A DNA stretch of 64,000 nucleotides from positions 23,756,630 to 23,820,629 of the forward strand of contig NC_092397.1 of the NCBI RefSeq assembly GCF_030028105.1. Direction: 5' to 3'. This DNA is from Mobula birostris (lineage: Eukaryota). The notes beneath the pieces were generated by a model. That model was not told the origin of the DNA. It made no database searches and saw nothing but the letters and a program-made list of their open reading frames with translations. Of the stretch, positions 7,600-60,600 are shown piece after piece. Made by a program: the position numbers and the translations under genes. The first letter of the stretch is position 1. Each line of letters opens with the position of its first letter.

Positions 7600-7836
7600 T
7601 TCAGCCGCTCTGCTGATTGACAGCTCCCTCTGCCCCGCCTCCCCGGCTGCCGGGTCACTGTCACGTGACACGTTGTGATTGTTACCCCGTGACGCGCTGA
7701 CGTCACAAAGCCCCACCTTTAGCGACGTCGTTTCCCGGGGAACGGGCCGTGGTGGGCGGTAAGTCCGGGGTGGTGGAGTCGGTCTCCACTTGTTGGGGTT
7801 TCGGTCTCTCCTCTTCCTGCCCGCGGAACAGTGAGT
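7600..7836 (+). promoter_or_regulatory. CpG-island TATA-less promoter with candidate non-coding first exon ending at a splice donor
   Basis: GC boxes (ccccgcctcc, gggcgg); GTCACGTGAC palindrome 7660-7669; perfect CRE TGACGTCA 7698-7705; donor ACA|GTGAGT at 7831; locally CpG-dense. Confidence 0.7.
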
Positions 7837-8969
7837 GTCTGTCAGCGCCTCACTGCACCGGCTCTCTGCCTCAGGTACAATATTTAAAACATATTTGCAC
7901 AGTCACATGGATGGGAAAGGTTGAGAGGGATTCGGGCCTAATGCAGGCAGATGGGCCGAGTTCAGGTCGACAACTTGGTCGGCGGGGATGAGTTGTACCG
8001 AAGGGACTGTTTCATTTCTGTATAGACCAGTGACTCTATTTTGGGAGGTTAAATCATGGCAGGATGTACACAGGTTCCTGAGAAGTTTCTGCCCCCCTCC
8101 CCCACACCTCCCTGGTACTGATTTAGATACCAGTTATTCTCTGTGTGAAATATTTACCCCTCAGATCCCCTTTGAATCCGTCTTTAAACAGTTTTGTCCT
8201 ATTCTAATGAGAGGCAGTTCTTTGACTGTCAAGGCAAGTAGAACACACAACCCTGTCTACCTGTGATGCCACGTACAGGGAACTGTGTAACAATATTAGA
8301 GGCACATGCACAGGGGCTTCAGTGAGCAAGGCCCAGAGGGATATGAAACTAATGCAGGAAAGTGGGATTAGTACAGCTGTGCATGATGGGGAGCATAAAT
8401 GTGATGGGCCAGAGGGTCTGTTTCTATCCAGTACAACCCTGACCACAGCAGTCCTCCAATGCAGTGGGGTTTGTCACCTTCATTCTCAACTGTGAGCTTG
8501 TTCCACTGAACCCCTTATCCTCTGAGAAGACATTTGCACCCTCCCACCGTGACCAAGCTATCAGCCATCTCTCCTAATATCACCCAGAGTACTTCACCAA
8601 ATTCCCATATAAAACTATTGTTACTGGTGCATAGGGAATGACAGCATTTTGGTAGCCTTTTGAGGGGGTTGGTTCAGTATTTGACCATTAATTCCTTTGT
8701 ACAACAACAATCCCATCATACTGGGTACTGAATGTTTTAGGTATGACCATCCTGAAGTTCTGTGCTTCAGGTTCCCATTGCACTTTCACTGTCAGTGATT
8801 TCTGCATGTCCATACTGACCATCGAGAATCTGTCTCCACTAACTCAGAACTTGGTCTGTCTTCTACCCTGCCTTGGTGATTCAAATGCTCATCCAGATGC
8901 TCCTTAAATACCAGCCTGCATCACCCCTTCAGACTGTGTTCCAGATTGTAACCTCCCTCTGGGGAGAAA

Positions 8970-28220: not shown

Positions 28221-28249
28221 ACCCAGCCTCCACAACAAGCACAAGAAAA

Positions 28250-28290
28250 GGCTCTTTTAAGAGCCACTACCACAGCAAAGGAAAGGGCTG
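28250..28290 (+). terminator. Histone stem-loop and HDE (H3)
   Basis: GGCTCTTTTAAGAGCC 28250-28265, then AAAGGGCTGT. Confidence 0.95.
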
Positions 28291-29049
28291 TCGCTTGCTG
28301 ATTATTGTAGTGACGATCTGCCTTCCTGATGGGGTTGTTCGGTTTCGCATTAACTGACCGCAATCATCAGCTGTTCTGTGCCGACAGGTTAATTCAGCAA
28401 GAGACAGGAGATGAACGCGCTCCCTCCCTGTCAGGGTCTCATCTGGCCCTTCACTTCTCCCACAAACCTGGCATGTACAGCTGCTGCGGCTGTTACCGTT
28501 TTGTTTGCTTTCGACATGCCCGGCTGTCCTTGGAGTGGGAGCATGCGGTCGCGATGGGTACAGTGGGAGATTTCCGAGAGCGGTAATTATATATTTTTGA
28601 TTTTATTCTTGTAAATGTTGTGAAAATAAACTTTTGTAGCTGGTACCTGATTGAAGGTCAGTCGGCAAAGTCGCCGGGAAGGTTATCATATATCTTCCCC
28701 CTGCAGTCCATCCCCAGAGACAGATCCCTCTCTCAAGACGCCCCCTCCCCTCTCACATAGGTTTCAGCAGTTCCCAATCAACTCAGCTGAATCGGGCTTT
28801 GGGATGCGAGGTGCGGAATCTCAGTCACGCTGTCCTGGAGCGGGAGAAGGAACTGGGCCTGCAGACCACCCCACCGGTCTCACTCTCTCTCACACACACA
28901 CAACCCGAGTGAAACGCAGTGTTTCACTTCAAATCTGGGACGTCAGGGCCGCTCTGAATGTCAGAGAGGTACCGGGAAAATCGGGTTTTATGCGATAAGT
29001 TCCCCCGCAAAACTCAGTCGGACCCGGCGCGGGAATCACAATATTCACG

Positions 29050-33500: not shown

Positions 33501-36500
33501 CCCCGCCCCAGTCTTCCCTCCATACCCCCTGACCCCCGTAGCCACAAGGGCCATATCTAACTCCCTCTTAAATATAGCCAGTGAACTGGACTCAACTGTT
33601 TCCTGTGGCAGAGAATTCCACAGATTCACCACTCTCTGTGTGAAGAAGTTTTTCCTAATCTCGGTCCTAAAAGGCTTCCCCTCTATCCTCAAACTGAGGC
33701 CCCTCGTTCTGGACTTCCCCAACATCGGGAACAATCTTCCTGCATCTAGCCTGTCCAATCCCTTTAGGATCTTATACGTTTCAATCAGATCCCCCCTCAA
33801 TCTTCTAAATTCCAACGAGTACAAGCCCAGTTCATCCAGTCTTTCTTCATATGAAAGTCCTGCCATCCCAGGAATCAATCTGGTGAACCTTCTTTGTACT
33901 CCCTCTATGGCAAGGATGTCTTTCCTCAGATTAGGGGACCAAAACTGCACACAATACTCCAGGTGTGGTCTCACCAAGGCCTTGTACAACTGCAGTAGTA
34001 CCTCCCTGCTCCTGTACTCGAATCCTCTTGCTATAAATGTCATAGAAAACATTGTATTGGGAAATGAGCCTGGCCATTGATAGAAGTTTCATTTTGGGAA
34101 CAGTAAATAAGGACAAGACTGGACCTGGTGGTAATATGGTCATTTGGGGTACAGTTAATTGCAACTGTCTACATTGAACATGTAAATGATGTTTAAAAGC
34201 AATCGGGTCAGAATTCAGACAGAACTGTTTCTATGAGGAGGAAACACAAGGATGGTAAAGTCTGGCAGAGGGGCATAGTGAGAGATGTTATGAATTCAGA
34301 CTGAAAGAAAATGAAGGATAAGGAATATTTCAGAAGTAGAAATTGGAGAAAGCCTCTGGCAACATGAAACAAGTAAGAGAGAAGTTAGAGAGAGAATCAG
34401 AAGTGTGAAACGGGAAGAAGAAATAACTTTGGTGAGAAGGGGCACTGCGAAGAGGGTACGACAACACAAGCACAGAAGAGAGAGTTTATGTCTGAAGTGT
34501 GCGAAGGACTAAACCTGTACTTCTCATCAGTATTCATCAATGTGGTCATGGAGGATAGTGAGATCAGAGAAGGGAATGTTGATATTCCAGGGCATGTTGT
34601 TCCTCAGGCAATGGAGACAAATTACAGATTGGTGAGTCTTGGATCAATGTTCGGGAAATTATTCGAGAATATTATTAGAGATAGGATCTCTAATAAAAGT
34701 TTGGAGGGTAAAAGGAGGATATCATGATTCAGAAGGCAAAGTGAGCAAAATCCAAGAGATTCTCTTGGTATATTCATAGGAAAAGTTAAGTTAGACACAG
34801 AATCGTTCCCCTTGGAGGTGAACATGGCCATCTGTGTGTGGAGGCAAATGAAATAGGAGAGGCTATCCATGAATATTTCTGACAGTTATTTCACCATTGC
34901 AAAAATTCTTTAAGGTTGTTAAATCTCCAGGGCTTTATCAGGTACATTCTCGTACTTTGTGGGAAGCTGGAGAATACACTGTGGAGGCCAGGGGAGAGAT
35001 TATTTTGCTTCATCTCAGGCACCAGTTGAGGTTGCACATGATTGGACAGGGTGAGCAATGTGGAATTGATAGTTTTGAGGCCCAGACTGTGGATGATATG
35101 AAGAGGCAGGCTGTGTTGAGGAAGCAGGGAGTCTGCAGTAGCACTTGACAGATTTAGAGAATGGACAAGGAAGTGCCAGATGAAATACAGTGTAATGAAG
35201 TGTGTGGTCATGTACTCTGGTAGGAGGAATAACACCCTAGGCTCTTTCTAATCAGGGAGAGAACAGAAATCAGTTGTGTGAAGGGTCTTAGTGCACGATT
35301 CCCTAAAGGTTAATGCACACATTGAGTTGGTAGTGAGGAAGGCAAACGTAATACTTGCATGCATTTCAAGAGAACTAGAAAATAAAAACAAGGATCTAAT
35401 GCTGAGGCTTTGGTCAGACCTTATTTGGAGTATCATGAGCAGGCTTGGGTAACTTTTCTAAGAAAGGATGTGCTGGCATTGCAGAGGCTGTAGTGGAAAT
35501 TCATGAGAATGATCCCAGGACTGAAAGAGTTAGGATGTAATAATCATTTGATAATCTGGGCCTACAGTCACTGGAGTCTAGAAGAATGAGGGAGAATCTT
35601 ATAGAAACACATTGAATATTGAACGGCCTAGATAGCGTTGATGTGAGAGGATGTTTCCAATAATGGAGGAATCTAGAACCAAACCACACCCTCAATAAAA
35701 GATGCCCCTCTAGAATAGAGATGAGTAATTTCTTTAGTCAGAAGGTGATGAATCAATGGATTTCATTTCCACAGGCAGCCATAAAGGCAGTCAGTGTTTT
35801 TTTTTTAAAGCAGAGGTTAGTAGATTTTTAATTATTATTAAGGGTATCAAAGTTTATGGGTAGAAGGCAGGAGAATGGGGTTGAGATGGATATATGATGG
35901 AATGGCAGAACAGACTGAATGGGCCAAAAGGCCTAATCCTGCTCCTGTGACTTCAGGACTGATGGTTTATGCGCTGCCATTGTTCAAAAAGGGTAGTGGA
36001 AACTACAGGCCCATCAGTCTGTAATTTGTTGGAAGAGTTTCTGATGAACAGGATCCACCAAAATTTGGTTTGATTCAAGACAGTCAGCACAGTTTTGTGC
36101 AAGGAAAATTATGTCTGGTAATTTCTTGCAGCCCTTTGAGGGGTTTCACAAGGGCGTAGATGAGGTTAGGGCTGTGGATGTTGTTTATATGGACATTAGC
36201 CAAGCCTTTGATTATAGTCTGGAAAGTTAGATCTAGAAACTGGAATCTGGGGAGATAGTTGATCGATTCCATAATTGCCTCCGTGACAGGAGGCAGAGGC
36301 TGATGGTTGAGGGTTGTGTCTCAGACTGGAGCTGTCTGTCTAGTGGTGTGCCACTGGGTGACAGGACCTTTGTTGTTTGTAATTTATATAAATAATGTCC
36401 ATCTGAATGTGTAATTCACTGAAAGTGACGTCTCAGCTAGATACGGTGGTGAAGATGGGGTTTGATCTGCTGGCCTTCATCATTCATGTCACTGAGTACA

Positions 36501-39026: not shown

Positions 39027-39095
39027 TCCCTTTTCTTCCTGGCACAAACAAAAGTCTGTATCAGAGCGACCCACCGCCTCACAGAGGGAGCCGCG
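39027..39095 (+). pseudogene. Orphan H4 3' end (degenerate stem-loop plus downstream element), CDS absent
   Basis: gcacaaacaaaagtctgtatcagagcgacccaccgcctcacagagggagccg aligns to H4 3' gcacgaaacgaaggctcttttaagagccacccaccgcctcacagacggagccg. Confidence 0.75.
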
Positions 39096-39691: not shown

Positions 39692-40335
<644 letters not shown>

Positions 40336-40854
40336 TCATTGTTCAAATTTAATCTGAAATTAAATCATTGCTGATCTGTTTGAGGACTGGGTCTTCGTAT
40401 TTCCCCCTGTTATTGAAACCGGGCACATTTAATGTAAGTGTAGTTGATAATGGAGTGTCTGGGAACTCAAATTTCTTTCAACTCGTAAAGGAACCGAGTA
40501 AAACTGACACTCAGCTTCTGCCCGGTGCTGGTCATTGTGTAAACGTTAGCAGGTTATGGACAAACGGCTCTTCTCAAACTGTGACCAGCGGCTAGTCTGC
40601 AATTTTTTTAAAAAAACTGTTCTATGAAAGAACCGTGAAGTCGTTCCGGCCTCGAATTAAAATGAGATTCAGAGAAGTTACCTAACTCCAAATAATAAAC
40701 TCCTGAACCCACAGCTAAAACAGCAACGGGAGTGGGAGGAATGTTAAACACCAGGATTATAGGGGGAAGATGAAGCGGATATTCCAACCGCTCTTTAGCT
40801 CCTGTAAAAGCCACCACACATAAAACGTGCGCCATGTATTGCCTAAATGCTAGT

Positions 40855-40896
40855 ACAACTCTCTCAGTGAAATCGTGAGTGGCTCTTAAAAGAGCC
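40855..40896 (-). terminator. Histone stem-loop and HDE (H2B-1)
   Basis: Minus strand GGCTCTTTTAAGAGCC, then GAGAGAGTTGT. Confidence 0.93.
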
Positions 40897-40927
40897 GTTG
40901 TGTTTTCGATCATCTCACTGGGGAACT

Positions 40928-41302
40928 TTACTTGGAGCTGGTGTACTTGGTCACCGCCTTTGTCCCTTCGGAAACGGCGTGCTTGGCCAGCTCCCCGGGC
41001 AGCAGCAGGCGCACGGCGGTCTGGATCTCCCGTGAGGTGATGGTTGACCGCTTGTTGTAATGGGCCAGGCGTGAAGCCTCGCCCCCGATGCGCTCGAAGA
41101 TGTCGTTGACGAATGAGTTCATGATGCTCATGGCCTTGGAGGAGATGCCAGTATCGGGGTGAACCTGCTTCATCACTTTGTAGATGTAGATGGAGTAACT
41201 CTCCTTCCTCAGCCTCTTGCGCTTCTTCCCTGCCTTACCGGCTGGTTTGGGCAGAGTTTTCTTGGCGCCCTTCTTCGGAGCGGGTTTCGCTGTCTCAGGC
41301 AT
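40928..41302 (-). CDS. H2B: Histone H2B (124 aa; ATG at 41302)
   Basis: [15 protein letters not shown]...[21 protein letters not shown]...TKYTSSK. Confidence 0.98.
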
Positions 41303-41349
41303 TTCAGCTGACCGCTTCAGAACCACAAATAAGCAAAACGGACCCGGAG

Positions 41350-41562
41350 CACGAATTAAATAGGCAGCGCCCAGAGGTGTATGCTAATGAGGGATGGGAT
41401 GCCTAGGTTTCTCAATGGCTATTTGAAGTAACGTTCATGCAGTAAGATAATTTGATTGGATAGCTAAAGGAATTCGTTCAACCAATCAGAACTCGTTCTG
41501 CACTACCCAGTGTTCGTTTTGGGTAACACCGTGGACAGGGACCTGTCGCCGATCTGGTGAGT
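41350..41562. promoter_or_regulatory. H2B-1 promoter, probably bidirectional, with plus-strand splice donor at 41557
   Basis: TATTTAA on minus strand ~41356; octamer variant ATGCTAAT 41381; ATTGG 41455; CCAAT 41482; CTG|GTGAGT at 41557. Confidence 0.7.
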
Positions 41563-41865
41563 TGCCGCTGCCGGTTAATTCCGCAGGAAGGAAATCTAAA
41601 ATACAAAATGGACCAACTACAGCGGCAGTATTCGGTCATTCGGCCCGTCGTATCTGCTAGAAAAGCAGATGGAATGAGGAAAACACACAGTTGATAATAT
41701 GAAACGTTTATGTAATGAAACAGGACAGCAGGAGACCGAAGGTCAAATGGACCAGGTGAAAGATAAATTTACTGCAGCAGCATCATAAACACATAGTATC
41801 CACGATACAGTGCCCACAAGAACTAAACTGCTGTACAGAATTGTAAAAAGAGAAGAGAATTAGCA

Positions 41866-41970
41866 GTTAGTCCTGACGAAGGGTCTCGGCCCAAAATGTC
41901 GACTGTACCTCTTTCCCAGAGATGCTGCCTGGCCTGCTGCGTTCATCAGCAACTTTGATGTGTGTTGCAG
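41866..41970 (+). mobile_element. Penelope-derived short element, hammerhead core mutated (GAAA to AAAA)
   Basis: gtc CTGACGA agggtctcggccc AAAA tgtc gac, then gatgctgcctggcctgctgcgttca. Confidence 0.7.
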
Positions 41971-42094
41971 AGAATTTGAACGAGTCTCAAGACAGTCCAT
42001 TGCAGTGTAAATTGATCAAAGTGGTGCTGTCTTGAGGTGGGGAGGAGCGTTGTTGGGTTTTGTTAAAGTACGTAATGTCTGTACATTACGTACA

Positions 42095-42272
42095 GGGTTC
42101 ATTCTGTACCCGTCAGCCTCTGGTACAGTGTGAGAGTGTGGAGTTCATTCTGTACCTGTCAGTCTCTGGTACAGTGTGAGAGTGTGGGGTTCATTCTGTA
42201 CCCGTCAGTCTCTGGTACAGTGTGAGAGTGTGAGGTTCATTCTGTACCTGTCAGTCTCTGGTACAGTGTGGG
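42095..42272. repeat. 46-bp minisatellite, ~4 copies
   Basis: gggttcattctgtaccYgtcagtctctggtacagtgtgagagtgtg starting at 42095, 42141, 42187, 42233. Confidence 0.92.
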
Positions 42273-42384
42273 AGTTGGTACTTGGCACTGTGTCTCCCAG
42301 TCTCTCATGCAGTGTAAATGTAGAAACTTCTTTCAGATTCATCCTCACAATTGAATTATTTTTAGCTTTTTAAACAATATCACA

Positions 42385-42820
42385 CAATGCGATGTGGCCA
42401 CACATTTGTTGGAGGAACAACACCTTATGGGTGGCTTCCAACCTGACGGCATGAACATCGAACTCTCGCATTTCTGGTAATGCCTCCCACACCCCCCCCT
42501 TCACCATTTCCCATCATCTTGCCCACCCACCATCTCCCTCTGGTGCTCCTCTCCCCTTTTCTTTCTTCCATGGCCTCCTGTCTCTTTCACTAATCAACTT
42601 CCCAGCCCCCTACAGGTTTCACACTCACCTTATTTTCTCTCTCCCCTTCCCCACCTTTTAAATCTACTCCTCAGATTTTCTCCTAAGTCCTGCCGAAGGG
42701 TTTTGTCCCAAAACAGTGGCTGTGTTTTTTTTCTATAGATGCTGCCTGACCCGCTGAGTTTGTTCAGCATTTGTGTGTGTGGCTTGGATTTCCAGCAACT
42801 GTAGATTTTCTCCTGTTTGT
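42385..42820 (+). mobile_element. Penelope-like element 3' end with degenerate hammerhead region
   Basis: ttggaggaacaacacctt...caacctgacggcatgaacatcgaa (LEEQHL..QPDGMNIE), pyrimidine tract, then the short-element module. Confidence 0.7.
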
Positions 42821-43525
42821 GACACAATGCTGTACATCAGTATCTCAGTGATGACGTATCTGGTTACGTTGTACTAATCTGAATGGACTTTGGAGCAGAG
42901 CATCCAGAGTAACAAGCCCAGACCATTCAACCCAACTCTGGTCTTGTGATAAATGTGTAACTTTCCTCGAGTCTCGGTGTGGGAGGGTTTGAATGGTGTG
43001 TATCGTGTAGCAACATTTGAACTGATAGAATTGAGAATGATTTTGACTGTAGATATGTAACCAGTGTGTCCACAGTGATCAGTGATGGGACCTTTGTTTG
43101 ATCAGATTAAAACATACGTGGGCGGATCAGATCGCTGATGACATGAATATTGGTGCAGTTGTGGGTGGCGAGGAAGGTTGTCAAATGGACAGAAGTGGAT
43201 ATAGATCAATTGGAATCATGGATGGAGAAATGGGGGAAATGGATTTTAATCTGGACAAGTGTGAGGAGTTTTACAGGTAAAATGTCAGAAGAAACTCCAC
43301 AGTAAATGGCAGCACCCTTAGGAGCACTAATACACGAGAGAACTTGATGTGTTCCTCTGTATTATCTTGCAAGTGTCACTAAAAGGAAGTAAACTGCTCC
43401 AAAGATCACAGAGCGGGAGCAGTAAGAGGATTCAGTGGGGGGGGTGGGGTCGCTGTAGGGTAATGTCATGGCTGGAAATGTGCGTAATTAATGACCACTG
43501 ACATTCTGTTGTGTTTCTCTTTTAG

Positions 43526-43546
43526 AAGCTGGACTGCTGTTATGAT
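43526..43546 (+). other. Candidate 21-nt microexon
   Basis: Branch-like cactgac ~43496-43502, polypyrimidine tgtttctcttttAG, exon aagctggactgctgttatgat, donor GTAAGT. Confidence 0.6.
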
Positions 43547-44105
43547 GTAAGTATGTGAAGTTTTTTTTTAAACTGTGCTTTATGTTTCTGTATTTGGAGG
43601 ACAATAAATGAGTTATGGTTTTCCTGAAATAGAAAATGCCTCATGCCATTTTATTTGTAAAAGTCTTCACACTGCAAGAATACCGCAGTATCAATCTGCA
43701 CCAAGAAAACCTGATCACATTCTCTTGAGGGTTAATGGCATTGCTGACTCTGAGTTTACTACCGTCGAATGCCAGCAGGGTCACAATCAGCAGAAACTCT
43801 CACAAAGCAGCTCTGTTTGTATTGTGTGCTTAGTAGGTCTGTGGGAGATACCCAGAATGTGAAGCTATAGTAATGGAGAGAGACACACTGAGCCAAGTCA
43901 CAGCTTGATAGGCAGAGAGGAAAACAGAGAATTTGATGTTGTGTCCTTATGCCTGAACTATGCCCAGTTAGAAGTGTTGTTCCTCCGCACAGTGTTCAGC
44001 CTCACTGTAACAGTGTGACATCAGACATCAACATGAAAACCAAAATAATCTCAGCTGAGATGTATTCTCTTTCACCTGTTGATCATCTTTGCAAACATTT
44101 TACAG

Positions 44106-44700
44106 GCAGAAAAGGCAAAGAATTTCTGTCTGAGAATCTCAAATGCAACAGCGTGTCACTTCTGCTGTGTCTGTCGGTTCCCCAGCATTTGAATGCTACC
44201 AATCACTGAATATGAAGGGGGAGATGGTTGAGAAGACAGCACACCAGAGTCCCAATACGTGGACTTGTCCATGGACTGACCTGATAAATGGCCATAGAGT
44301 TGATAACAGTGAGTTGGCGTTCACCGCCTCTCATTTTGGAAGGGATTCACCAGGCCACTGCACCTGCAGATACACCAGCAAGTTCACACGGGGAGAGGCC
44401 ATTCACCTGCTCCATGGCGGACGGGATTCATTCAGTCACAAGCTATTGCAACACCAGCCAGTTCACACCGGTGAGCAGCTAGACTTGGCTCTGTTGTCTC
44501 TGTCTCTCAGTATAGCTTCACACCTGTTCCAAGTGTGGGAGGAGATTCATTCAGTTCACCCACCGTGTGAGGCTCCAGTGAGTTTACAATTCATAGAGGA
44601 CACACTTCTGTCCTGAGTCAGCAAAGAAATTTACTCAAGTCATCCCACCTGCTGAAACACCAGCAACTTCACATCAGGGAGGAAGTTATAAGAAGCTGTA
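44106..44700 (+). pseudogene. Decayed C2H2 zinc-finger terminal exon
   Basis: Acceptor ttttacAG at 44105; remnants HQQVHT-GERPFTCS, HQPVHTGE, CSKCGRRF, HLLKHQQLH with frameshifts and lost Cys. Confidence 0.8.
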
Positions 44701-45734
44701 TATGGGACTGTTAATGTCAGATTCCACAGATATTGTGGCTGCTCATCAGACCCAGGACTGAACCCTGGTTACTGAGCATTGAGGGGGTTCATCCCACCAT
44801 CTTAAAATACACTGATGTTTAATATTGTGGATCTGTCATAGACAAATAGATCAATTCCATTTCAAATCCTGTGTCTCAGGTGCTTCCTCCCTGTCACACT
44901 GATAATGAACAGTCGAGAGGCCACCCAGTCCAGCTGGTACCTGCTTGTGTTCCTATTGCACACCAGAGCTTTCAACCCCATCCCTGCCGTTCACCACTAA
45001 CTCACCCTATAATGTTCAGGATGTAACTGGTCACCGGTCTGGTGATGAAGAGGTTTACCTTGAATTCACTCCACGACTTTCTGTAAACTGCAGAGGATTA
45101 ATTTACTGTGGTTTTCTCCCAAATATTCCTCATCCCTCACAGCTCTGGACCAAGGCTGAAGTCTTGTGTTGTTAAAATCTTCCTGTCCCACTCTATTCAT
45201 TGCTTTGTGTCATTTTCACTGATTTCGAAGGGCTGTGCCTCACCCTGCCGGGCTGTTGCAATACAACACTCTCCTCTAAATTACGACAGCAGAATGGTGG
45301 AGCAGAAACAAGAGGGGTCAGCACAAATGAGGGCTTTGGAGCTCCAGATGTGATGGAGGCTCGAGTTTACAGAGAGTAGAAGGAGGGAATCAGACCAGGA
45401 GGATGAGGCTGCAAATGAAAGTTCAGCAACATTTGGAAACTGATTGACTGAAAAAAGAGGTTTATGTTTGCAAAATACTGGAGGGACTCAGTGCCCCCCA
45501 GCAGCATCTGTGCAGACAAATAAATAGTTGATATTATGGGCCAAGACACTTCATCCTATCTAGACTGTTTATTCCTCTGTTTAGCTGCTGCCTGACCTGC
45601 TGAGTTCCCGCAGTACTTTGTGTGTGTCACTTTACAGTTTATTCCCAGCATCTGCTGAACCTCGAGTTTCATATCTGCATTTCTAAATGAGTGGAACTGT
45701 GACAGTTGTCATACAAAATGCTTGTTGACATTGA

Positions 45735-47339: not shown

Positions 47340-47790
47340 CTTCTGATGCAGGCGGGGCGGGAGGTGCGGAATGTAGTGGGGCGTTTATGATTGGTGAACC
47401 AGTGCCCATTCTGATTTGAAAGAGCAAATATTCCAATCACAGAGCTGCCTTATTCACCAATCAGACTGTAGAAGCGCGGAAAATACCGTCTAACCGCCGA
47501 AATAAACTGAAATTTGCAATACACCGCCAAAAAAGCCTTTGTTGCTGAAATTAAACCACAACAGGTTTGTTTGTCGGCTCTTTACCCCCGTTACTGGAGT
47601 CCGACACACTTAAACAAAGTGTAGTTAATATTGCGATGGTGTCTGAGAAATTAGTTCACCGATATCTTTCAATTGATAAACGATTGGAATAAAACCGGTC
47701 CTCAGCTGCTGTTCGCGGTCGGTCATTGTGTAAACTCAAGTCAGTTTAGCAAGGGGTCACCCGTCAGAAAGTGGAGCTTTAACAAGTACT
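47340..47790 (-). promoter_or_regulatory. Orphan H2A-type promoter and spacer (no CDS)
   Basis: ccaatcacagagctgccttattcaccaatca...agaagcgcgga...ccgccaaaaaa and the following spacer align to ~40195-40600. Confidence 0.75.
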
Positions 47791-48112: not shown

Positions 48113-48154
48113 GTAACTCTTTTAATGAAACCGTGAGTGGCTCTTAAAAGAGCC
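48113..48154 (-). terminator. Histone stem-loop and HDE (H2B-2)
   Basis: Minus strand GGCTCTTTTAAGAGCC, then AAAGAGTTAC. Confidence 0.93.
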
Positions 48155-48191
48155 TTTGATTTTCCGGTTTGTTTTGTCAGTGAACTTGTCT

Positions 48192-48566
48192 TCACTTGGA
48201 GCTGGTGTACTTGGTCACCGCCTTTGTCCCTTCGGACACGGCGTGCTTGGCCAGCTCCCCGGGCAGCAGCAGCCGCACGGCGGTCTGGATCTCCCGGGAG
48301 CTGATGGTGGACCGCTTGTTGTAATGGGCCAGGCGGGAAGCCTCGCCCGCGATGCGCTCGAAAATATCGTTGACGAATGAATTCATGATGCTCATGGCCT
48401 TGGAGGAGATGCCGGTGTCGGGGTGAACCTGCTTCATCACTTTGTAGATGTAGATGGCGTAAGTCTCCTTCCTCGACCTCTTGCGCTTCTTGCCAGTCTT
48501 GCTCGCTGGTTTGGACAAAGCTTTCTTGGCGCCCTTCTTGGGAGCGGGTTTCGCTGGATCAGGCAT
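48192..48566 (-). CDS. H2B: Histone H2B (124 aa; ATG at 48566)
   Basis: [19 protein letters not shown]...[11 protein letters not shown]...TKYTSSK. Confidence 0.98.
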
Positions 48567-48609
48567 TTCCTCGTCGGTTTCAAACACAATAATAAGCAGA
48601 AGCTGTTCG

Positions 48610-48760
48610 GAGCGCGGATTAAATAGGCAGCGCCCAAAGCGGTATGTTAATGAGGATGGGAATGCTGAGCATTTCCATTGGCTGTTTGGAGAAATGAATC
48701 ACCAATCGGAACGCTGGGGGATGGGAAGCGGCGCCAATGGGCGGGGTTTACCGCTGTCGT
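48610..48760 (-). promoter_or_regulatory. H2B-2 promoter
   Basis: TATTTAA on minus strand, octamer-like ATGTTAAT, ATTGG/CCAAT boxes, GC box. Confidence 0.75.
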
Positions 48761-49964
48761 TTGATGCGGGAGGAAGTACTGAAGGGCAGAGACAGGCCGG
48801 GGTGCGGGCTGAAATTGAAAAGGGAAACGCAAATTTCAAAAGCCGAATGAAAATAAAATCAGATGAAATATTGTAAAATTAAACACTAGGACATTTAGTT
48901 CATGACATAGGGCTGCAGGAGAGTGAAGGAGAGATTTGGACATTTCAGTGTAAAGTTTAAATCGAGTTTATTTATGCACAGGTGAAAGGAACAAAGTATT
49001 TGTAGCAGCATCACAGACATTGCATCAGAGACACAACACTGACAAGAAACACTGAAATTAAATATGAATTATACCAAAATATTCAAACAGACAGAAGACT
49101 ATCAGAACAAAATCAAAATAACAAACAGATTATGCCGGCAGTGGGAGAATCATCCCTCTTGTGCTTCTTCATCTCGTCACTCTGGATTCAGTGTCACACA
49201 ACGCTGCCACTTTGGTCTGGCCCATGCCTTCATTAACCAAGTCCAACACTTGCCTTTATTGCATCTTCCTTCTCCTTACACTGGTCATCGGGTTTGTGGG
49301 GGTGTGTGCCCCCTTGAACCTCAGGATTAGGTTTGAGGGTAGGGCTGGTGGATGTATATGCGGGGCTGGGAGAGATAATGCTGTGGAGTTTAGTATGGTG
49401 AGATAGGTGGGGCTATGGTGGATAGGGTAGTGTAGTGGAGTCACTTCAATCTTGCCCATTCCTTTCATTAACGTGGCCTGACACCACTTGGCTTAATGAA
49501 CCGGGTGTTGCAAAGGGACACATCGTCAGTAATGCAACCTGGGGTCATTGGGTGTTTTGGGTCTTTAATCATGAGACATCCTCGCCCAGGCAACCCAGCC
49601 AGGGTTAATCAGGCCCGCTTGTGTTTATCCCATGGATCAAGGTAATGAGAGGCATGTAATTCTGCATGTTGTGGGTATTTTAAACCTTGTTACTTGGCTT
49701 TATTTTGACCATTTGGGGAGTAGAATGTTCTGAGGCCTAGTAATCAGGCTTTACCTCCAAGTAAGGTTCAACTTTCCTACTTTCAATTTAGAATTGTCTT
49801 TATTTTGCATCTGTATGCCTGGGATTGCATGGGTTAAATTAACAGTGTTCACTGCAGTACAAATTAGTGATTAGGTCTGTGGAGATTGGTCCATAATTCC
49901 AAAATGCAAACATCTCTGAAATCCAGATTTTTTTGTGCGGACATGACATCACAAATGGAGAATT

Positions 49965-50822: not shown

Positions 50823-52642
50823 TGATTTACACCTCATTCTAAGGGTATTTTCCTCAGATATGGAGTTCTCATTCAGGGGAAAGATCCTCCTTGCCTATTG
50901 CCTGTCATATCCTGAAAGAATCTAACAGATTTCCTCGTTTTCTCATGAACAGCAGGGAATACAGACCCAGCGCACTCACTCTCCTCTCATATAACCAACC
51001 TTCCATCCCCGGAACCAACCCAGTCAGTGTGGGGAACAGTCACTGCACTCCCTCTATTGCAGGGATATCCTTCCTGAGGAAGTGTGACCAAACCTGGACA
51101 CGATACTCAAGGTGTGCTCTCACCAGGGCCCTATATAATCCCAGTGAGACCTCTGTACCCTCTTGTACAATCCCCATGGATCACAGGACAAAATACTGTT
51201 TGAACATAGAACATAGAATAGTACAGCACAGTACAGGCCCTTCGGCCCACAATGTTGTGCCGACCCTCAAACCCTGCCTCCCATATAAATAGAACATAGA
51301 ATAGTACAGCACAGTTCAGGCACTCTCATTACTTGTTGTATCTGCATGTAAACTCAAGTGATTTGTTTACAAGGATGCCCAGGTCCCTCTGAACATCCCT
51401 GTGTGGAAATGACTCTTACAGTTTGTTCCTGGGAATGGGTGATCACACATTTCCCCACATTCTGTTCCATCTGCCACATCCTCAACCGTTCACTCTCCTG
51501 TCTACATCCCCCAAACCTTCTCACTACTGACACTGTCTCTCCCACTCTGCCACAGCAGCAGACGTAGTTACTGAGTTATGCAGCACAGAAACAGGTCCTT
51601 CAGCCCAACACATCCATGCTGACCAAGTGGCCAAACAAAATTATTGTCAGTTGCCTGCATTTGGCCCATGTCCCTGTGAAACTTCCCTCTCCACAGTCCA
51701 AGAGATATTGCAACTGTGCCCACCTACACCACCACTTGGGATAGTTTGTTCCATGTAAACAGCACATTCTGTGTACAAAACCTGCTCCTCAGGGTCCTAT
51801 TTAAATCTTTCCTCTCTCACTTCATATCTGTAATCTCTCGCTTCCAACTCCATAAACCTGGAGATAACAGATTCACTGTTGACCGTATCTATGACTGCCA
51901 TTATTTTATCACCTCTCTAATGTCACATACACTCTGGTGAGAAAGGTCCTGGCCTATGCAGCCTCCTGTTAAATCCCTTTTGCACCCTCTCCAGTTTAAT
52001 GTCACCCTCTGATCCCAGGGCAACTATAACTGTACTCCGTGCTCCGAGAGTAGTTTCCCCGAGGCTGGTAGAGCGGTAACGTGACGTCACAGTCCAGTGG
52101 CCGATACTCTACCCGATGAATGCGAGTGTGGCGAACAGCTTCTTCACCGTCCTGCCTACCTGTGTTTACACTCTGAAGGAATTCGATATCTACACCCCGA
52201 TATCTCTGTTTTACAGCACTCCCAGGGACAGACCATTCCCCACGGCAGTTCTGCCCTGGTTCGTCAATAACAATGGAACATCTCACATTTATCTGTCATT
52301 CCTCAAATCAGTGACCTCATTGATCACCGTCCTGTTGTAATGTTAGTTACATTGTTTCACACTCCACGATATCACCAACTTTAGTGACATCGATAAATTT
52401 GCTGAGCCGGGCAGTGACGTTATCAGCCCTGACTCAGCTCCCAGGCTTTTCCTCGCAGCGATACACGCGCAGTGCTGGAGGAACTCAGCAGGCCAGGCAG
52501 CATCTATGAGAAACTGGAAACCGCCAACGTTTCAGGCCGAGACCCTCCATCAGCATCTGCACAATGGTCTTGTGTTTGGTTTTCCTTCGATCCTAAATTA
52601 CTGGATAACATGACCCATCCTCCAATCCTCTGCCACCACTCC

Positions 52643-52857
52643 TGCCCGAGAAACGCGCAGAGACACAGAGGCGGGGAGGGGAGGAGACAGAGTCAGAGTG
52701 ACGGACAGAGCCGAGAGCGGCCTCTCATCGTCCAGCTCCGTCTTCACTTTAATACACCCGGCAATTTCCAACGGTTTGTCCGAAACACAGAGCTCCAGAG
52801 AGAGAGAAAAAAACGCCCTCTAACACCACGTACAGAAGGAGTTCTAGGAATTTACTG
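52643..52857 (-). promoter_or_regulatory. Orphan H4 promoter, truncated before the TATA box
   Basis: ctgcccgagaaacgcgcagagacacagaggcggggagggg...gtccagctccg mirrors ~26530-26745. Confidence 0.85.
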
Positions 52858-53296
52858 GCGGTCGGACTTCATCGGATCAGAATACAGTGTGATTGGCGCA
52901 GGATCAATTTCAAATTGCCCGCCAATTTCAGAGCACCCAGCAACGGTGATGGAAGACTTTTTTAAAAATTATTTACCGTTAGTTTTATCACGCATTATAC
53001 AATTTCAGTTTCATTTAATAAATTTAATATCTAATCCCCTGAGTTAAGATTTAAATGCATAATTACGGAGTCGCTTCTCTAAACGAGTGAACTGATTCCT
53101 GTCCGAGACGGATAAAAGAATGAAGATCGATCTTAACGCGTTCAGAGGTTCTGAAGTAATCACCGACTGGAAAGGCAGATTCGCAGGAATATTGCAAACC
53201 GAACCGATTAATGTGTTTCAAATGTAACTCAGCTGAATGTATCGATAAAAATAATTAAAAGGTTGTGGATACGGCTCCGTCTGTGAGGCGGTGGGT

Positions 53297-53312
53297 GGCT
53301 CTTAGAAGAGCC
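53297..53312 (-). terminator. Histone 3' stem-loop (H4-2)
   Basis: Minus strand GGCTCT TCTA AGAGCC ACCCA. Confidence 0.95.
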
Positions 53313-53345
53313 TTTGTTTCGTGCTCGGGAGGAAGTGGGAGTTTT

Positions 53346-53666
<321 letters not shown>

Positions 53667-56129
53667 TCACTCAGGTCGCTGCTCACTGACAAACTGCCTG
53701 TTGCTGTCTCCTTTTATACACAGCGCCCCGACCTGCCCGAGAAACGCGCAGAGAGACAGAGGCGGGGAGGGGAGGAGACAGAGTCAGAGTGACGGACAGA
53801 GCCGAGAGCGGCCTCTCATCGTCCAGCTCCACCTTCACTTTACCACAACCGCCAATTTCCAACGATTCATCCGACACAAAGCGCTCCAGCGAAAAACAAA
53901 ACTCCCCCACACACAGTCTGAAAAGAACGAGAGCCAATGTCAGGCTAATAAACATGGTGGGACTGATGGGCTGAAATGAGTTTATTTCAACACTAGGAGT
54001 ACTATGTTATCGGACGGACAGGGCTGGCAGCTCAACATTCCTGGGTTTCATTGTTTTACATGTGAGTGGGGGGTTAAAAATGCAGAGGTTACCTCACTGG
54101 GAATGTCACAGCAAACTGGAAGGTTCATTTACAGAGGCAATCTGCAGTTACACTATTGGGGTGTTTGTATTGGCCCCGCAACAACCAGTGGGGGGACATT
54201 ATCTTCTCTAGATTAACTGGAACTTGCTTAATTCTTAAATGCGCCAGATTTCTTCAGTGAATCTGAGAGGTGTTTGAAACATTATGTACAGGGCCCAACC
54301 AGAGGTGAGAACAGATGGGAATGAGCCAGGCCAGGTGACAGTTGAGAGTCAGTGAACATTTTGGGAACAGTGATCACAAGTTTCTTTTTTTCTTAGTTAC
54401 AAGTAAAAATAAAAGTAGATCTTGTATGAAGGTACTAATTTGCAGGAGGACAAGTCAGGACGGAGGAAGACAGGAGCCAGGCAACATTGATTGGGAGCAG
54501 CCACTGTCAGACAAGTCCACATCTGATGTGTGGGAGTTGTCTAAAGACCAGCTACTCTGAGTTCAGGATCAGCATGTTCCGGTGAGGAGTGAGGAGAAGG
54601 GATCTTTAGACAAGCAGAGAGATCCTAAATTTAGTCAAAAGGTTATGGAAGGTTTGTGAAGCTAAAGTCAGACTGGGTACCTTTGGAATATAAAGGTAGC
54701 AGGGAAATGCTAAAGCAGGTGATAGGAAAGGCCAAAAGGGGCCACAAACTGTCCTTGTAATGTAGGACCAAAGATGATCCCAAGGCCTTGTGATTTGTAT
54801 TAATAAGACGAGGATAACCAGAGAATAGAAATGTCGACTCAAGATTAAAGGAGGAATGATGTGGTTGAAGTCAGATCAAGTGGCTGAGGTACTAAATGAG
54901 TATGTTGTGTCAGTATTTACTGAAGTGAAGGAATTGAATGGCAATGAAAACAGAATGAGGCATGCGAATGTGCAGAGACATTTTGAGATTAAGGAGCAAG
55001 TTGTGCTGGGACGTCTGAAAAGCAATAAGATGGCTAAGACTCCAGGGCCTGAAGGCAAATATCCTACAACAGTGAAAGAAACAAGTGAGCAGATTGCCGG
55101 TGATTTGACAAGGATCTATGTGTCCTCGATCACAACATGTGAGGTCCCACAGGACTAGAGTGTCAGAAATATTGCAGCTTTGATCAAGAAGGGAAATAAC
55201 AAGAATCCAGGAATCTATGGGCAGGGCAGCCTCATTTCAGTGGTAGAGAAGCTACTGGGGAGGATATTGAGGCACAGGATTTATGCACATTTGGAAAGGC
55301 ATGGCCTGCTTAGGGACAATCAACATGGTTTTGTGTGGGCAGATCATGCTTGACAAAATTGATTGAGGTTTCTCAGGAAGTGACACAGGCTAAGATATAG
55401 GAGCAGAATTCAACCATTTGGCCCGTCGTCTGCTCCGACATTTCATTGTGGCTGATCCATTTTCCCTTTCGGCCCCAGTCTCCTGCCTTTCCCCTGTATC
55501 CCTTCATACTCTGACCAATCAAGAATCTATCAACCTCTGCCTTAAATATACATAAAGTCCTGGCTTAACAGCTCCCTGTGGCAATGAATTCCACAGATGA
55601 ACCACTTTCTGGCTAAAGAAATTCCTCATCTCCACATTCTACAAGGATATTCTTCTATTCTGAGGCTGTGTCCTGATATTAGACACTCCCACCCATCTTC
55701 TGCACATCCACTTTATCACTGCCTTTCACCATTCGATAGGTTTCAATTGGGCCACCCCTCATTGTTCAAAAATTCCAGTGAATACAGGCCCAGAGCCATC
55801 AAACACTCTTCATATGACAAGATGTTTCATCCTGGAATCAATCTGGAGAACCTCCTTTGAAACCCATCGAGTTTCAGCTCATCCTTCCTAAGATGAAGAG
55901 CCCAAAACTGCTCACAATACTCCAGTGAGACCTCCACAGTACTTAATAAAGTCTGATCATTACTATGATTGGCGCAGATATTGTGAGACGAAGGGCAGGT
56001 TGCCATCTGTTCCATATTGTGTACTGATGAATATGTTTGATCTGACAGTAATTGCAGGGACATGGTTACAGAGACTGGGACTTCGACATTCCACTATATT
56101 CAATGTTCCACACGGAATTGGCAAAATGT

Positions 56130-57630
56130 AAGTTATTAGGTTTTATTGTTTTGCAATGGATTTAATTTGGCTTTTTTGACACTGATCAACAGAAAAGACT
56201 ATGGTGTCAAAGTGAAAACAGATCTAAATTAATTGTAAATATGAAACAAAATAATTCATTGCCTTAGTATTTACCTCCTTCAAAGCCTTAATTAGTTGAT
56301 GCACCTTTGGCAGTATTTACAGTTGAGTCTGTGTCGATAGGTGTCTATCAGCTTTGCACATCTGAACACTGCAATTTTTCCACATTCTTCTTTACAAAAC
56401 TGCAGAAGCTCTGTCAGAATGCATGGGTTAGTGAGCGAACACTTCTTTTCAAGTCCAGCCACAAATTCTCAATTGGATTGAGGTCTGAACTCTCACAAAG
56501 CCACTCCAGGACATTAACTTTGTTGTTTTAAGGCATTCCTTTGCAGCTTTGGTTTTATGCTTGTGGTCATTGTCATGCTGGAAAATTAATTTTCTCCTAA
56601 GTCGCAGTTCTCTTGAAGACTGAATTTGGTTTTCCTCCAGGATTTCCCTGTATTTTGCTGCATTCATTTTACCCTCTACCTTTATGTGCCTTTCAGGGCC
56701 TGCTGCAGTGAAGCATACCCACAGGATGATGCAGCCTCCACCATACTTCACGGTAGGGATGGTATGTTTTTGATGTTGTGCGGTGTTTGGCTTACTCCAA
56801 ACTTAGTGTTTGTGATGGTCAAAAGGTTCAATTTTGTTTTCATCAGACCATAGAATCTTCTTCCAACTAACTTCAGAGTCCCCAACAATTCTGGGAAACT
56901 CCAGGGAAGATTTCATCAGAGCATTTTTCAACACTGGCTTTTTCTCTGCCACTCTCCCGTAAAGCTGCGACTGGTGAAACACCCGGGCAACAGTTGATGT
57001 ATGCACAATCTCTCCCACCACTGAAGCTTGTAACTCCTCTAGAGTTATCATAGGTCTCTTGGTGGCCTCCCCCACTGGCCCCTTCTTGCATGGCCATTCA
57101 GTTTTTGAGGATAGTCTGCTCTTGGTAGATTTACAGCTGTGCCATATACTTCCCACTTCTGGATGAGTGACTTAACTGTACTCCAAGGGCATTCAGTGAC
57201 TTGGAAATGTTCTTGTATCCAACTCCTGGCTTGTGTTTGTCAATTACCTGTTTGCAGAGCAGCTCAGAGTGTTGATTTGTCTTCACGGTGTAGTTTCTCC
57301 CAGGATACTGACTCACCAGCAGTTCGACCTTCCACTTACAGGTGTACTATTACTACAATCAATTGAAACACCTTGACTGCACACGGTGATCCCCATTTAA
57401 CTGATCATGCAACATCGAAAACTAGTTGGCTGCACCAATGATGATTCGGTGTGTCAGTGTCATATTAAAGGGGGTGAATAATTAAACAGACAATTATTTT
57501 GTGTTTTAGATTTGTAATTAGTTCAGAGCATTTTGTAGAGATTTGTTTTCCCTTTGACACAAAAGAGTCTTTTTCCATTGATTGGTTTCAAAAAAAGCCA
57601 AATTCAATCCACTGAGATTCAATGCTGTAA
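56130..57630 (-). mobile_element. Tc1-family DNA transposon, near complete but dead
   Basis: ILWSDENKIE, KYGGGCIILWVCF, FQHDNDHKH and SPDLNPIENLW in broken frames; long degenerate TIRs ~56130-56285 and ~57465-57630. Confidence 0.9.
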
Positions 57631-60600
57631 ATTTTCATAGGAACTTTATATGTAGGGACAATGATGGTGAAAGGGGGAGGGAAAGACAACATTGGTAGGA
57701 GCGGCCTCAAGATCCTGGGGTGTGGTCAAAGGCATTCAAGGAAATATTAAATCAAAGAACATACAAAGAGGCGCTGGTGGTGCACAAGAGAATCAGAGAT
57801 TTTCTAGGAACCAGTGAAAAGCTAAAAGTAAAAAGGAACACGCAGAGAAGTTAACTCAATAATTTGCATTAGTGCTCACAGTGGGTCACAGCAAACATCG
57901 CACAGATATCTAACGGTGACATTTCAACATTGTGCCATAATGTATAACAATTGGCATCACAAGGGAGAAACTAATGGGACTAAAAGCAAACTTTACCAGG
58001 TCCCAACGACCTGCACTGGAGGGTTTCACAGGAAGTCTGTAGAGAAAGTAGAGACATTGAAGTTTGTCAAAACTCACTGTTACAGAAAGGTCCCAGTGGA
58101 GTTGAAAACCATTGCTGAAGAAGGGTGGAAGATAAAAAGCAGATAACTGTAGTCCTGTTAACTTCACTTCAGGTCCTGGAGTTGATAATCTATCAAGAAA
58201 TAACAAATCATTTGGAAAAGTTCAATGTCTACAGTCAGGTTCACACAGATTCCACGATGACCAAAGTTCCCATCTGAGCTTGTGGTCTGTAACCCCCTCA
58301 CCACCACATTATGAAGAAAGTTATCCTCCTCCTTGTCCCATTTCTCTGCATTTGGCCCAGATACTTCAAAACCTTTTCTTTCCATCTATCTGTCCAAGTG
58401 CCTTTTTAATGTCCCTGACTCAACCATTCCCCCTAGCAGCTCATTCCATTTCCAGCCTCCAGGTCCCTCATGATTTTATACACCTCTGCAATATCAGCAC
58501 TCATTCTCCAACATTACAGGGAAAATTATCCAAAACACCTTTCCACAAATCCTTTGAGATCCAGTAACATCCCCATAAATCTCCTCTGTGCTCTTTCCAG
58601 CTGAATGGTGTCTGTCATACAGCAGGGTCACAGAAACTAAACACTATTTGCAAAATGTGGCCAAACCAACGTGTTGGACAACTGCAACATCTCATCCCAG
58701 CTTCTATATTCGGGGCCCTGAGTGAAGGCCAGTGTTCCAAAAGCCTCTTCACCACCCTGTCCATCTGGAACCTGGTCTTGGACCCTGTAACCTGGGTTGT
58801 TGAATGTTAAGTCATGTTTGACAAACACACCAGAGATTTAAGACTTTACAGGGGAAGTTGGAGAAGTGGTGTTTTTGGATTTTCAGGAGCCATTTGCCAA
58901 GGTGCCACAAGTAAGGCTGGTGCACAAGACCAGAGCTCAGTACTGGGAAGGAAGTGTGTTAATACTGACTGAAGACTGGTCATCATACTGAGACAGAATA
59001 ACAGGTCTGTTTCAGACTGGGATGATATAACTAGTGGAGTGTCCCAGCGACCAGTTCTGGATTGTCAATGATTTATTATTGATATTAATGACCCGGAGGA
59101 GCGGCAGAGAGTGAGGAATCCACGGTGGCAATGACAGTGAATGTGGTGGGGGACATGTTGTGATTGGACATTTCATCTCTTCAATGGGACATGGGAAGCT
59201 GGTGAGCAGAATACATGGTAAACGGAGTTTAATGTGGTGAAGTGTGAAGGCATGTCGAGTGGTAGGAGGAATCAAAAGTCAAACTATTATTTATGTGGAG
59301 ATAAATTATAAATGAGAGAAATAGAGAGGGGTCGAGGTGCTGAACTACACAACAAAATAGAGACAGGAGCAGTGAGTGGTTCATAAAGCCATATATGACC
59401 AAGGTTTAGAGCTGAATGGTCCATTGACATTTACTGCTGGGGTGTTGGTGCAGAGAAACAGAGAAGTGTTGTTACTGTGACAGACAAGTGCACAATGATG
59501 GATTTTGGGAAGTTAAAGCAGGTCAGGACATACCCAGTGAATGGAGGGTCCTGAGGAGTGTTGATGAAAGAGAAACCTGGGGCACAGGTACCGTACTCCC
59601 TGAAAGTGGCAACACAGGCAGACAAGGTGGTGAAGAAGGAGCACAACATGCTTGTCTTCATCGGCAAAGGCTCTGAGAGGAGTTGGGACATCACATTACA
59701 GTTGTACAAATCAATAATGACACCACACCAGGAGTACCCTGTGCAGTTCTGGTTACATGAGAGGAAGGATGTGATTAAGCTGGAAAGGTGCAGAAACAAT
59801 TCACAGGAATGTTACCTGCTCTGGGGGCTTGAGTTACAAGGAAATATCAGACTGACTGGGACTGTTTTCCCTGGAGTGAAGGAGACTGAGGGGGAGACCT
59901 GACAGAAGATTATAGAACTATGAGAGGTGTAAACAAGGTAAACAGGCAAGATCATTTTGCCAGGGTAGAAATATCAAATATGAGAAGGCGCAGCTTTAAA
60001 ATGCCAGGGTGAGAATTTAAAGGTGGACATTAGGACAGGTAAGATTTCTGTTTCTGTACAGAGAGTGGTGAGGGCCGGGTATGGGCTGCCATGGGGAGTG
60101 GTGGAAGCAGATATGATAATGACATTTAACAGGGTTTTAGATAACCAAATGAATATTCAGAGAATTGAAGCACATGAATTATAAGCAGGCAGAAGAGACT
60201 TAGTTTCATTTGGCATCGTGTTCAGCACAGACATCATGGGAAGAAGGGTCTGTTCCTGTGCTGTACTGTTCTGTGTTCTCGGTGAGCCTCAGTGACAGGG
60301 GAGTCTTTAGCCGGGGTCACAGACAAGTGTATCTGTGGCAAGGAGAGAGACTGAACGATGGTGCATTGCCTCCCTGGTAGCAGGGCCAAGGATGGAATTG
60401 AACAAGTACAGGCCATTCTGAAAGGGCAGGGTGAGCAGCCAGAGGTCGTGGTCCATATTGACACCAACAAAAGAGAAAAGTCCTGCAAGGAGAACTCAGG
60501 GAGTTGGGGAAAAAGTTAAGTGGAAACTCTGTGGTCGGGGGGTGGGGGGTGTGGAAATCCCAGTGCCACCTGCTAGCGAGGGAAGAAATAAAAGTGTGAT

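Follow-up and report, generated by a model that had tools for sequence, protein, structure and literature searches.

Histone genes and a decayed zinc-finger array

The window, that is the whole stretch of 64,000 nucleotides of Mobula birostris DNA that was analysed, contains seven histone genes, and no divergent H2A/H2B pair (0) is found among them. The features that bear on the locus between H2B-1 and the zinc-finger (ZNF) remnant facing it are collected in Table 1. The original prediction was that a histone promoter had been co-opted to drive a divergent, spliced ZNF-derived transcript, and the missing divergent H2A of H2B-1 was taken as one sign of this. The absence itself was confirmed, but the H2B-to-H2A order is tandem here, so that no divergent partner has been lost, and H2B-2 is likewise without one (divergent H2A at 0/2 H2B genes). 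Four histone stem-loops make up all of the Rfam matches in the window, and those of the H4 and H3 genes are intact on the + strand at 27166 and 28250. A tRNA search of the 64-kb window found no tRNA genes.

Table 1. Features of the H2B-1/ZNF locus, its control copy and the rival first exon (positions in the window)
Feature	Position	Strand	Details
Histone-free CpG block, rival first exon	7601..8000	+	Donors 7759 (9.71) and 7831
H2A gene	39692..40078	-	Tandem downstream of H2B-1, not divergent; Pfam, Rfam
3' histone stem-loop of H2B-1	40855..40901	-	RF00032
H2B-1 coding sequence	40928..41302	-	Intact, 124 aa; Pfam Histone E 1.2e-22
H2B proximal promoter module	41303..41433	-	Common to H2B-2; TATA-like 41356-41362, octamer-like 41381-41388
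Two CCAAT boxes, opposite orientations	41455..41486		41455 on -, 41482 on +
Candidate non-coding first exon	41487..41556	+	No TATA-like box; exon status putative
Strong donor motif	41557..41562	+	CTG/GTGAGT; motif scoring
Candidate intron 1	41586..43332	.	Mostly multi-copy repeat pieces; contig depth, comparisons
Branch-point-like site, pyrimidine tract, AG, 21-nt exon, GTAAGT	43496..43552	+	Exon 43526-43546
Weak acceptor and terminal exon of ZNF pseudogene	44104..44850	+	3' end approximate
Decayed C2H2 array	44290..44680	+	His-pair units at 44361, 44440, 44561, 44646
Insert inside array	44477..44522	-	Inverted copy (39/46) of intron-2 stretch 43858-43905
H2B-2 and promoter, control copy	48192..48776	-	+ strand CCAAT 48702, 48734

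The dead C2H2 array is real, as had been predicted, and its identity is given by matches in PDB (E 1.1e-9 and 4.1e-6), the best of which are the ZNF568 and PRDM9 arrays; the Pfam zf-C2H2 match lies solely below the cut-off. The finger units are spaced by 79, 121 and 85 nt, all three intervals being out of frame, and the array also carries stops and an insert. HTGE-type linkers are kept between the units, and a pattern search of the region detected no intact C-x2-4-C-x12-H-x3-5-H finger. Protein searches returned no scoring relative (17 candidates; 11 candidates; 0 of 1.84 billion), a result of little weight because the reading frames are broken, and the ZNF 3'-end pattern was found at 0 metagenome and 0 viral loci. 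An ORF of 157 aa at 44143 was considered as a product and rejected, having no Pfam, PDB or database relative. Neither a second copy of the exon nor a second ZNF copy was found elsewhere in the window. Unlike a replication-dependent histone transcript, the gene model has two introns, and Rfam and motif searches revealed no histone stem-loop at its end. Judged from the sequence, the locus facing H2B-1 head-to-head is most likely a ZNF pseudogene of the unprocessed type that has retained splice motifs whose use is predicted.

The H2B-1 promoter and the splice motifs beyond it

The promoter of H2B-1 contains two motifs, at 41356-41362 and 41381-41388, which we take to be TATA-like and octamer-like elements, and the segment 40857-41431 is 84.6% identical to 48115-48694 of H2B-2. 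A search for the H2B-promoter pattern gave 0 loci in metagenomes. The forward CCAAT box at 41482, the donor at 41557, the 21-nt exon at 43526-43546 and the acceptor at 44105, on which the original prediction was built, are all present. The CCAAT box, however, had been read as a sign of divergent firing, and it is uninformative in this respect, since a CCAAT oriented away from the histone gene occurs at 6/7 histone promoters in the window, with two at H2B-2. A TATA-like word is absent from the + strand across 41434-41600. The far side of H2B-1 holds no H2A-type promoter remnant (its alignment to the H2A promoter was matched by 100/300 shuffles), nor does it resemble the H2A, H3, H4, H1 or 7.7-kb promoters, 7/8 targets being at shuffle level.

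The same flank is the CpG-rich block closest upstream of the ZNF remnant, and it contains the strongest donor nearby. Splice sites were scored with crude matrices of our own making; on this scale the donor at 41557, 255 nt from the H2B-1 ATG, takes rank 2 among 3716 + strand GT sites, and with the - strand included, its score is reached by 12/7551 GT sites. The stretch 41525-41590 is collinear with the H2B-2 distal promoter (48710-48776) in a weak alignment (43/66), whose score was reached by 11/2000 shuffles and takes rank 2-3 of 952 tiles. The aligned CCAAT and GC-box stretch of H2B-2 lacks the donor, which suggests that the donor at 41557 may be a product of recent drift, not part of an old ZNF exon. 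At H2B-2 itself there is no strong divergent donor (the best scores 6.76), and no divergent gene was seen there either.

Candidate intron 1 comprises the tail remnant of a repeat (41586-41657) and dispersed repeats (41869-41968 and 42635-42829), presumably of the SINE/LINE class, and a 46-nt tandem repeat (42095-42315). The 21-nt exon beyond it is preceded by a branch-point-like CACTGAC 28 nt upstream, and its acceptor AG is the sole AG in the 50 nt before the exon. With thresholds fixed at the exon's own scores, acceptor-donor pairs this strong within 60 nt number two on both strands (128 kb), and one of them is the 21-nt exon. In the spliced model it contributes two ATGs, which open frames of 10 and 9 codons. 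The last acceptor (AG 44104-44105) is weak, being equalled or beaten by 353/4163 + strand AGs, and an imperfect palindrome ahead of it is not significant (z -1.6). The claim that the splice signals are better preserved than the fingers is not supported: this acceptor is weak, and small splice cores survive neutral decay far more often than long frames do (in an illustrative calculation, 17-43% against 0.1-3% for a 340-nt frame, at an assumed divergence of 10-20%).

Contigs of four of the eight sequencing runs (X1, X2, X3 and X5) were aligned to 41303-45720 at 85% likeness; the run type was guessed as RNA for all eight, one being probably DNA, and the contigs show neither starts nor strand. Parts of the locus are covered in 4/4 runs, each reaching 26-27/30 bins, and the bins at 41451-41746, which include candidate exon 1, are without cover in 4/4 runs, a gap given no weight because each run has other holes as well. 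Contigs that bridge a splice site are unspliced, at the last acceptor in 2/4 runs and at the 21-nt exon in 1/4, and may derive from DNA or pre-mRNA; near-bridging contigs of X3 (29 letters on one side) and X2 (30 letters) were left out of these counts. The predicted joints 41556/43526 and 43546/44106 do not occur among the 15 of 150 joints and the 32 of 11375 pieces listed, and all of these 15 joints stem from repeats, which the low likeness and the wide stretch allow to dominate.

The runs contain many similar contigs, and paralogous ones stack at 44263-44410 and 44707-44854. At 43457-43727, run X5 holds a copy of 89% identity, as against 96% for the best-matching contig of that organism; the hypothesis of a single locus has a P of 3.6e-6, and the pair of values is consistent with an inherited family exon. 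In organism B this decayed exon recurs, about 96% identical but without 44388-44674. This loss fits a drifting pseudogene, but may also reflect an assembly jump between finger repeats.

Origin of the first exon

Directly observed are the decay of the array, the presence of the splice motifs, the head-to-head geometry and the tandem order of the histone genes. The reading that we tentatively place first is that of a frameshifted C2H2 pseudogene which faces H2B-1, likely once started at the far edge of its promoter, and is now probably a neutral remnant. H2B-1 would keep the CCAAT-bearing DNA open, permitting ordinary divergent initiation in a TATA-less first exon; the strong donor at 41557 would capture the divergent transcript, and splicing would then join it to the 21-nt exon and this in turn to the finger exon, if the three pieces do belong together. 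The present remnant would have neither a function nor a cell-cycle role. Promoter sharing between the ZNF remnant and H2B-1, taken as a separate question, stands at about even odds. A further reading, which we regard as doubtful, is that the first exon was made from H2B promoter DNA: the distal CCAAT and GC-box stretch, which H2B-2 still has, would have mutated to a donor and captured neighbouring ZNF 5' exons, after which the replication-dependent histone promoter would drive a spliced ZNF transcript.

A distinctly possible alternative is that the ZNF pseudogene is real, and that its true first exon was lost, is buried in repeats (41.6-43.4 kb) or was never copied, the donor at 41557 being a chance motif in drifting distal promoter DNA of H2B-1. 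So strong a donor is expected by chance with a probability of 0.18 (~18%) in any of the seven 300-nt promoter flanks, though of 0.028 in a single one, and the flank in question is that of the closest promoter to precede an orphan internal exon. The collinearity with donor-less H2B-2 DNA also speaks for chance, but this homology is weak and one unrelated tile scores higher. The repeat content of candidate intron 1 and the TATA-less + strand point in the same direction. At the other extreme, the H2B-1 promoter might be bidirectional today and yield a ZNF-derived lncRNA that peaks in S phase. The three splice elements lie in order, two of them strong, H2B-1 is intact and has its octamer-like element and stem-loop, and contigs of 4/4 runs, of guessed type, cover parts of the locus. 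We nevertheless consider this unlikely: a forward CCAAT and the lack of a divergent H2A are usual in the cluster, the survival of splice cores requires no selection, the bridging contigs are unspliced (a weak point), and both a + strand TATA-like box and a ZNF-side stem-loop are absent. Histone S-phase control includes a post-transcriptional part, which cannot apply where there is no stem-loop. S-phase coupling of the ZNF remnant, as put forward in the original prediction, is unsupported.

Two further readings place the first exon elsewhere. The 21-nt and finger exons could be driven from the CpG promoter without histone genes at 7.6-8.0 kb, with the histone genes nested in a 36-kb first intron. 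This orphan CpG block has a strong donor (7759, rank 4 among 3716 + strand GT sites) and no other clear downstream + strand gene in the window. Histone 3' stem-loops direct RNA cutting, however, and the transcript would have to pass the two intact same-strand ones of H4 and H3, so that read-through RNA would tend to be cut; it would also pass a further microexon-like acceptor-donor pair at 35019-35050, and the real partner exons of the block may lie outside the window. We rate this reading as quite unlikely. The donor at 40434, on the H2A flank, is nearly as strong as that at 41557 (score 9.26) and is no more than 356 nt away from the H2A ATG; the first exon would then lie beyond the H2A promoter. 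In the alignment, however, the homologous position of the H2A-promoter remnant has no GT, the transcript would run antisense through H2B-1 and collide with it, and a stronger donor is closer by. This origin is very improbable.

What stands of the proposed co-option is thus a spliced-type ZNF remnant, head-to-head with H2B-1, with the strongest nearby donor in the nearest upstream CpG-rich flank, whereas the arguments from the CCAAT box, the missing H2A, the preserved splice signals and S phase do not.

Relation to known gene clusters and promoter pairs

The human histone cluster is interspersed with ZNF genes and pseudogenes, and C2H2 ZNF genes have short non-coding 5' exons and a single finger exon, an architecture that the gene model here shares. 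As it stands, the locus is a further dead zinc-finger copy among clustered histone genes, which is of use for annotation. If histone promoters had repeatedly come to drive ZNF transcripts across the cluster, they would offer ready-made promoters to an expanding ZNF family, and if the ZNF paralogs of the clade regularly start behind histone promoters, there would be a mechanistic reason for the interspersion of the two. Were this true for paralogs, they would provide a natural test of how far the cell-cycle control of a histone promoter reaches to a divergent, intron-containing partner. No report of histone-ZNF promoter pairs was found in the literature searched, outside which lie most subscription journals and supplements; the part of PMC8455134 covered holds nothing relevant to such an arrangement.

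In its dispersed replication-type histone genes among repeats, the window resembles the histone/tRNA super-clusters of human 6p22, zebrafish chromosome 4 and stingray chromosome 28, but differs from them in having no tRNA gene. Such a cluster is described in a ray in 10.1101/2025.06.08.657570, in the main text of which the word "zinc" has 0 occurrences. The array shares HTGE-type linkers and the ZNF568/PRDM9 matches with tandem Kruppel-type C2H2 genes, which have TGEKP linkers; unlike them, it has no intact finger, all of its intervals are frameshifted, and it contains an inverted intron copy.

The TATA-like, octamer-like and CCAAT elements of H2B-1 recall the joint promoters of divergent H2A/H2B genes, although no such pair exists in the window and the far side has neither H2A-promoter resemblance nor a TATA-like box. 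All three motif classes are given for human core histone promoters in Table 1 of PMC1794435, and PMC2880410, in the part covered, counts a CAAT box in 73/86 histone promoters. The geometry would fit that of head-to-head (bidirectional) promoters, whose opposite units start within 1 kb of each other, and of promoter-upstream divergent transcripts: given candidate exon 1, the two units would start less than 300 nt apart in CpG-rich, CCAAT-bearing DNA. In human cells, according to the part of PMC11019832 covered, head-to-head initiation mainly concerns TSS pairs of the histone cluster at one promoter class, with median distances of 188-277 nt. Those pairs join histone to histone, whereas H2B-1 would be paired with a ZNF pseudogene that has a candidate start.

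Organization of the histone cluster

The window represents a repeat-rich vertebrate histone cluster with seven histone genes (see table), the 3' stem-loops of four of which are supported by Rfam. Its repeats suggest a shark or ray as the source. The lack of a divergent H2A partner of H2B-1, originally taken as a sign of promoter co-option, proved to be the norm in this cluster: H2B-1 leads in tandem into H2A, and H2B-2 is followed by an H2A promoter remnant. Comparison of the two regions indicates that the H2B-H2A unit was duplicated and that the second copy then lost H2A. The remnant downstream of H2B-2 (47433-47735) is a copy, 65% identical to 40220-40544, of the H2A upstream region with no H2A gene. 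No lost H2A partner was replaced at H2B-1, the far side of which contains neither a TATA-like word nor any resemblance to the H2A promoter.

Histone genes of the window
Gene	Position	Strand	3' motif
H4	26821	+	stem-loop
H3	27810	+	stem-loop
H1	29777	-	stem-loop
H2A	40078	-	stem-loop
H2B-1	41302	-	stem-loop
H2B-2	48566	-	stem-loop
H4	53657	-	stem-loop

An inverted segmental duplication, in blocks of 78-94% identity, relates 15809-27607 to 52849-64000 and includes both H4 genes; an additional copy of the H4 promoter region (52641-52853, 88-90%) has no H4 coding sequence behind it. At 39042-39094 the 3' stem-loop of H4 and its downstream element recur in isolation (45/51); the stem is damaged and the H4 gene itself is absent. 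A truncated H3 pseudogene with a stem-loop remnant (77% to H3 at 27931-28299) lies at 1806-2157. The long 27-nt tandem array at 21137-22660, open in both directions for ~480-500 codons, is probably a minisatellite.

A decayed zinc-finger gene and its probable relatives

The motifs of the original prediction (CCAAT, donor, microexon, acceptor and finger remnants) were all found at their predicted positions. The C2H2 identity was confirmed by PDB matches of frame fragments to the ZNF568 (E 1.1e-9) and PRDM9 (E 4.1e-6) arrays, the Pfam zf-C2H2 match being below cut-off only. The four His-pair units are spaced by 79, 121 and 85 nt (84 expected; 3/3 intervals out of frame), no complete finger pattern is left in the finger region, the microexon-started frames of the spliced model have just 10 and 9 codons, and a search for relatives of the 157-aa ORF found none. 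The zinc-finger exon is a pseudogene. We class it as unprocessed, derived from a C2H2 ZNF gene and arranged head-to-head with H2B-1. Within the 121-nt interval, 44477-44522 is an inverted copy (39/46) of the intron-2 stretch 43858-43905, which is itself multi-copy among the aligned contigs.

Contigs of four of eight sequencing runs, which may derive from RNA or DNA, were aligned to the locus. Their depth is raised at 44263-44410 and at 44707-44854, and an additional base is seen in contigs at 44389. These signs point to the existence elsewhere of a ZNF gene family whose members are similar and probably intact. A contig of organism B (the source of run X5) is ~96% identical through intron 2 and the finger exon and lacks 44388-44674, a gap cut between finger repeats rather than at GT-AG. 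A second contig of this organism shows 89% identity over 43457-43727; as this difference is improbable from one locus (P 3.6e-6), the surroundings of the microexon appear to exist in more than one copy.

The H2B-1 flank as a candidate first exon

Splice sites were scored with crude matrices built for this analysis, that for donors reflecting general donor base frequencies. The donor at 41557 ranked 2/3716 among plus-strand GT sites. When the thresholds are fixed at the scores of the 21-nt exon, two acceptor-donor pairs on both strands of the window reach them, this exon included. A branch-point-like site lies 28 nt upstream of it, and no other AG competes with its acceptor. The last acceptor is unremarkable (353/4163 score at least its value). 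The sole other strong microexon-like pair on the plus strand lies at 35019-35050.

The likeness of H2B-1 and H2B-2 extends to 41431. Further out, 41525-41590, with the donor inside, is collinear with H2B-2 48710-48776 (43/66), where a CCAAT and a GC box occur and the donor does not. This score, the best among eight targets tried, was reached by 11/2000 dinucleotide shuffles, and 1/952 window tiles exceeds it, with the background close behind; the homology is suggestive only. If true, exon 1 would be H2B promoter DNA, and either H2B-1 acquired the donor or H2B-2 has lost it, which would allow literal co-option and likewise a chance donor. That a ZNF gene captured promoter DNA de novo to serve as its first exon is, in our view, improbable. 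A contig of run X3 (record 17), 97% alike across the proximal promoter (41303-41433), ceases to fit at 41433, where H2B-1 and H2B-2 diverge; with 25 letters unaligned, the contig may represent either a third copy of H2B or an allele with an indel.

The H2B-1 flank is the closest upstream CpG-rich block, with the strongest donor nearby, and that the ZNF gene formerly used it and is now dead is a prospect we place slightly below even. The forward CCAAT, previously read as a sign of divergent firing, carries no weight, because six of the seven histone genes have one facing away (H2B-2 two), and CAAT boxes were found in 73 of 86 human histone promoters (PMC2880410). It is rather less probable that the donor is a chance motif and the true first exon is lost. 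In favour of the H2B-1 flank, so strong a donor has a chance probability of just 0.028 in a single 300-nt flank; against it, the figure is 0.18 over seven promoters, two of which have a divergent donor scoring >9. The CpG block at 7601-8000 has strong donors, no histone gene and words that we take to be CRE/E-box-like; a first exon from this 7.7-kb promoter is very doubtful, as the transcript must pass two intact histone stem-loops on the same strand, and one from the H2A flank would be more surprising still.

Splice-site survival, S phase and known histone promoters

Contigs run unspliced across the last acceptor in 2/4 runs (X2 record 15, X5 record 29); in 1/4 (X5 record 28) this is also seen at the two borders of the microexon. 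Genomic DNA and pre-mRNA would look just like this, so the contigs speak neither for nor against splicing. The splice sites had been thought better kept than the fingers, which needs no selection, because at 10-20% neutral divergence, under assumed rates, the eight invariant splice bases survive in 17-43% of cases and a lesion-free 340-nt frame in 0.1-3%. Histone cell-cycle control has a transcriptional share, the one possible for an intron-bearing RNA without a stem-loop. The ZNF side has no histone stem-loop and its model has introns, so at most this share could apply. Both points argue against a live, S-phase-coupled lncRNA, which we regard as quite unlikely.

In the literature searched, the coverage of which is incomplete, we found no report of a ZNF gene driven from a histone promoter. 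Large histone clusters have been described in a ray (10.1101/2025.06.08.657570), the main text being silent on zinc fingers. Histone promoters that work in both directions are established (PMC1794435; PMC11019832; PMC6314538).
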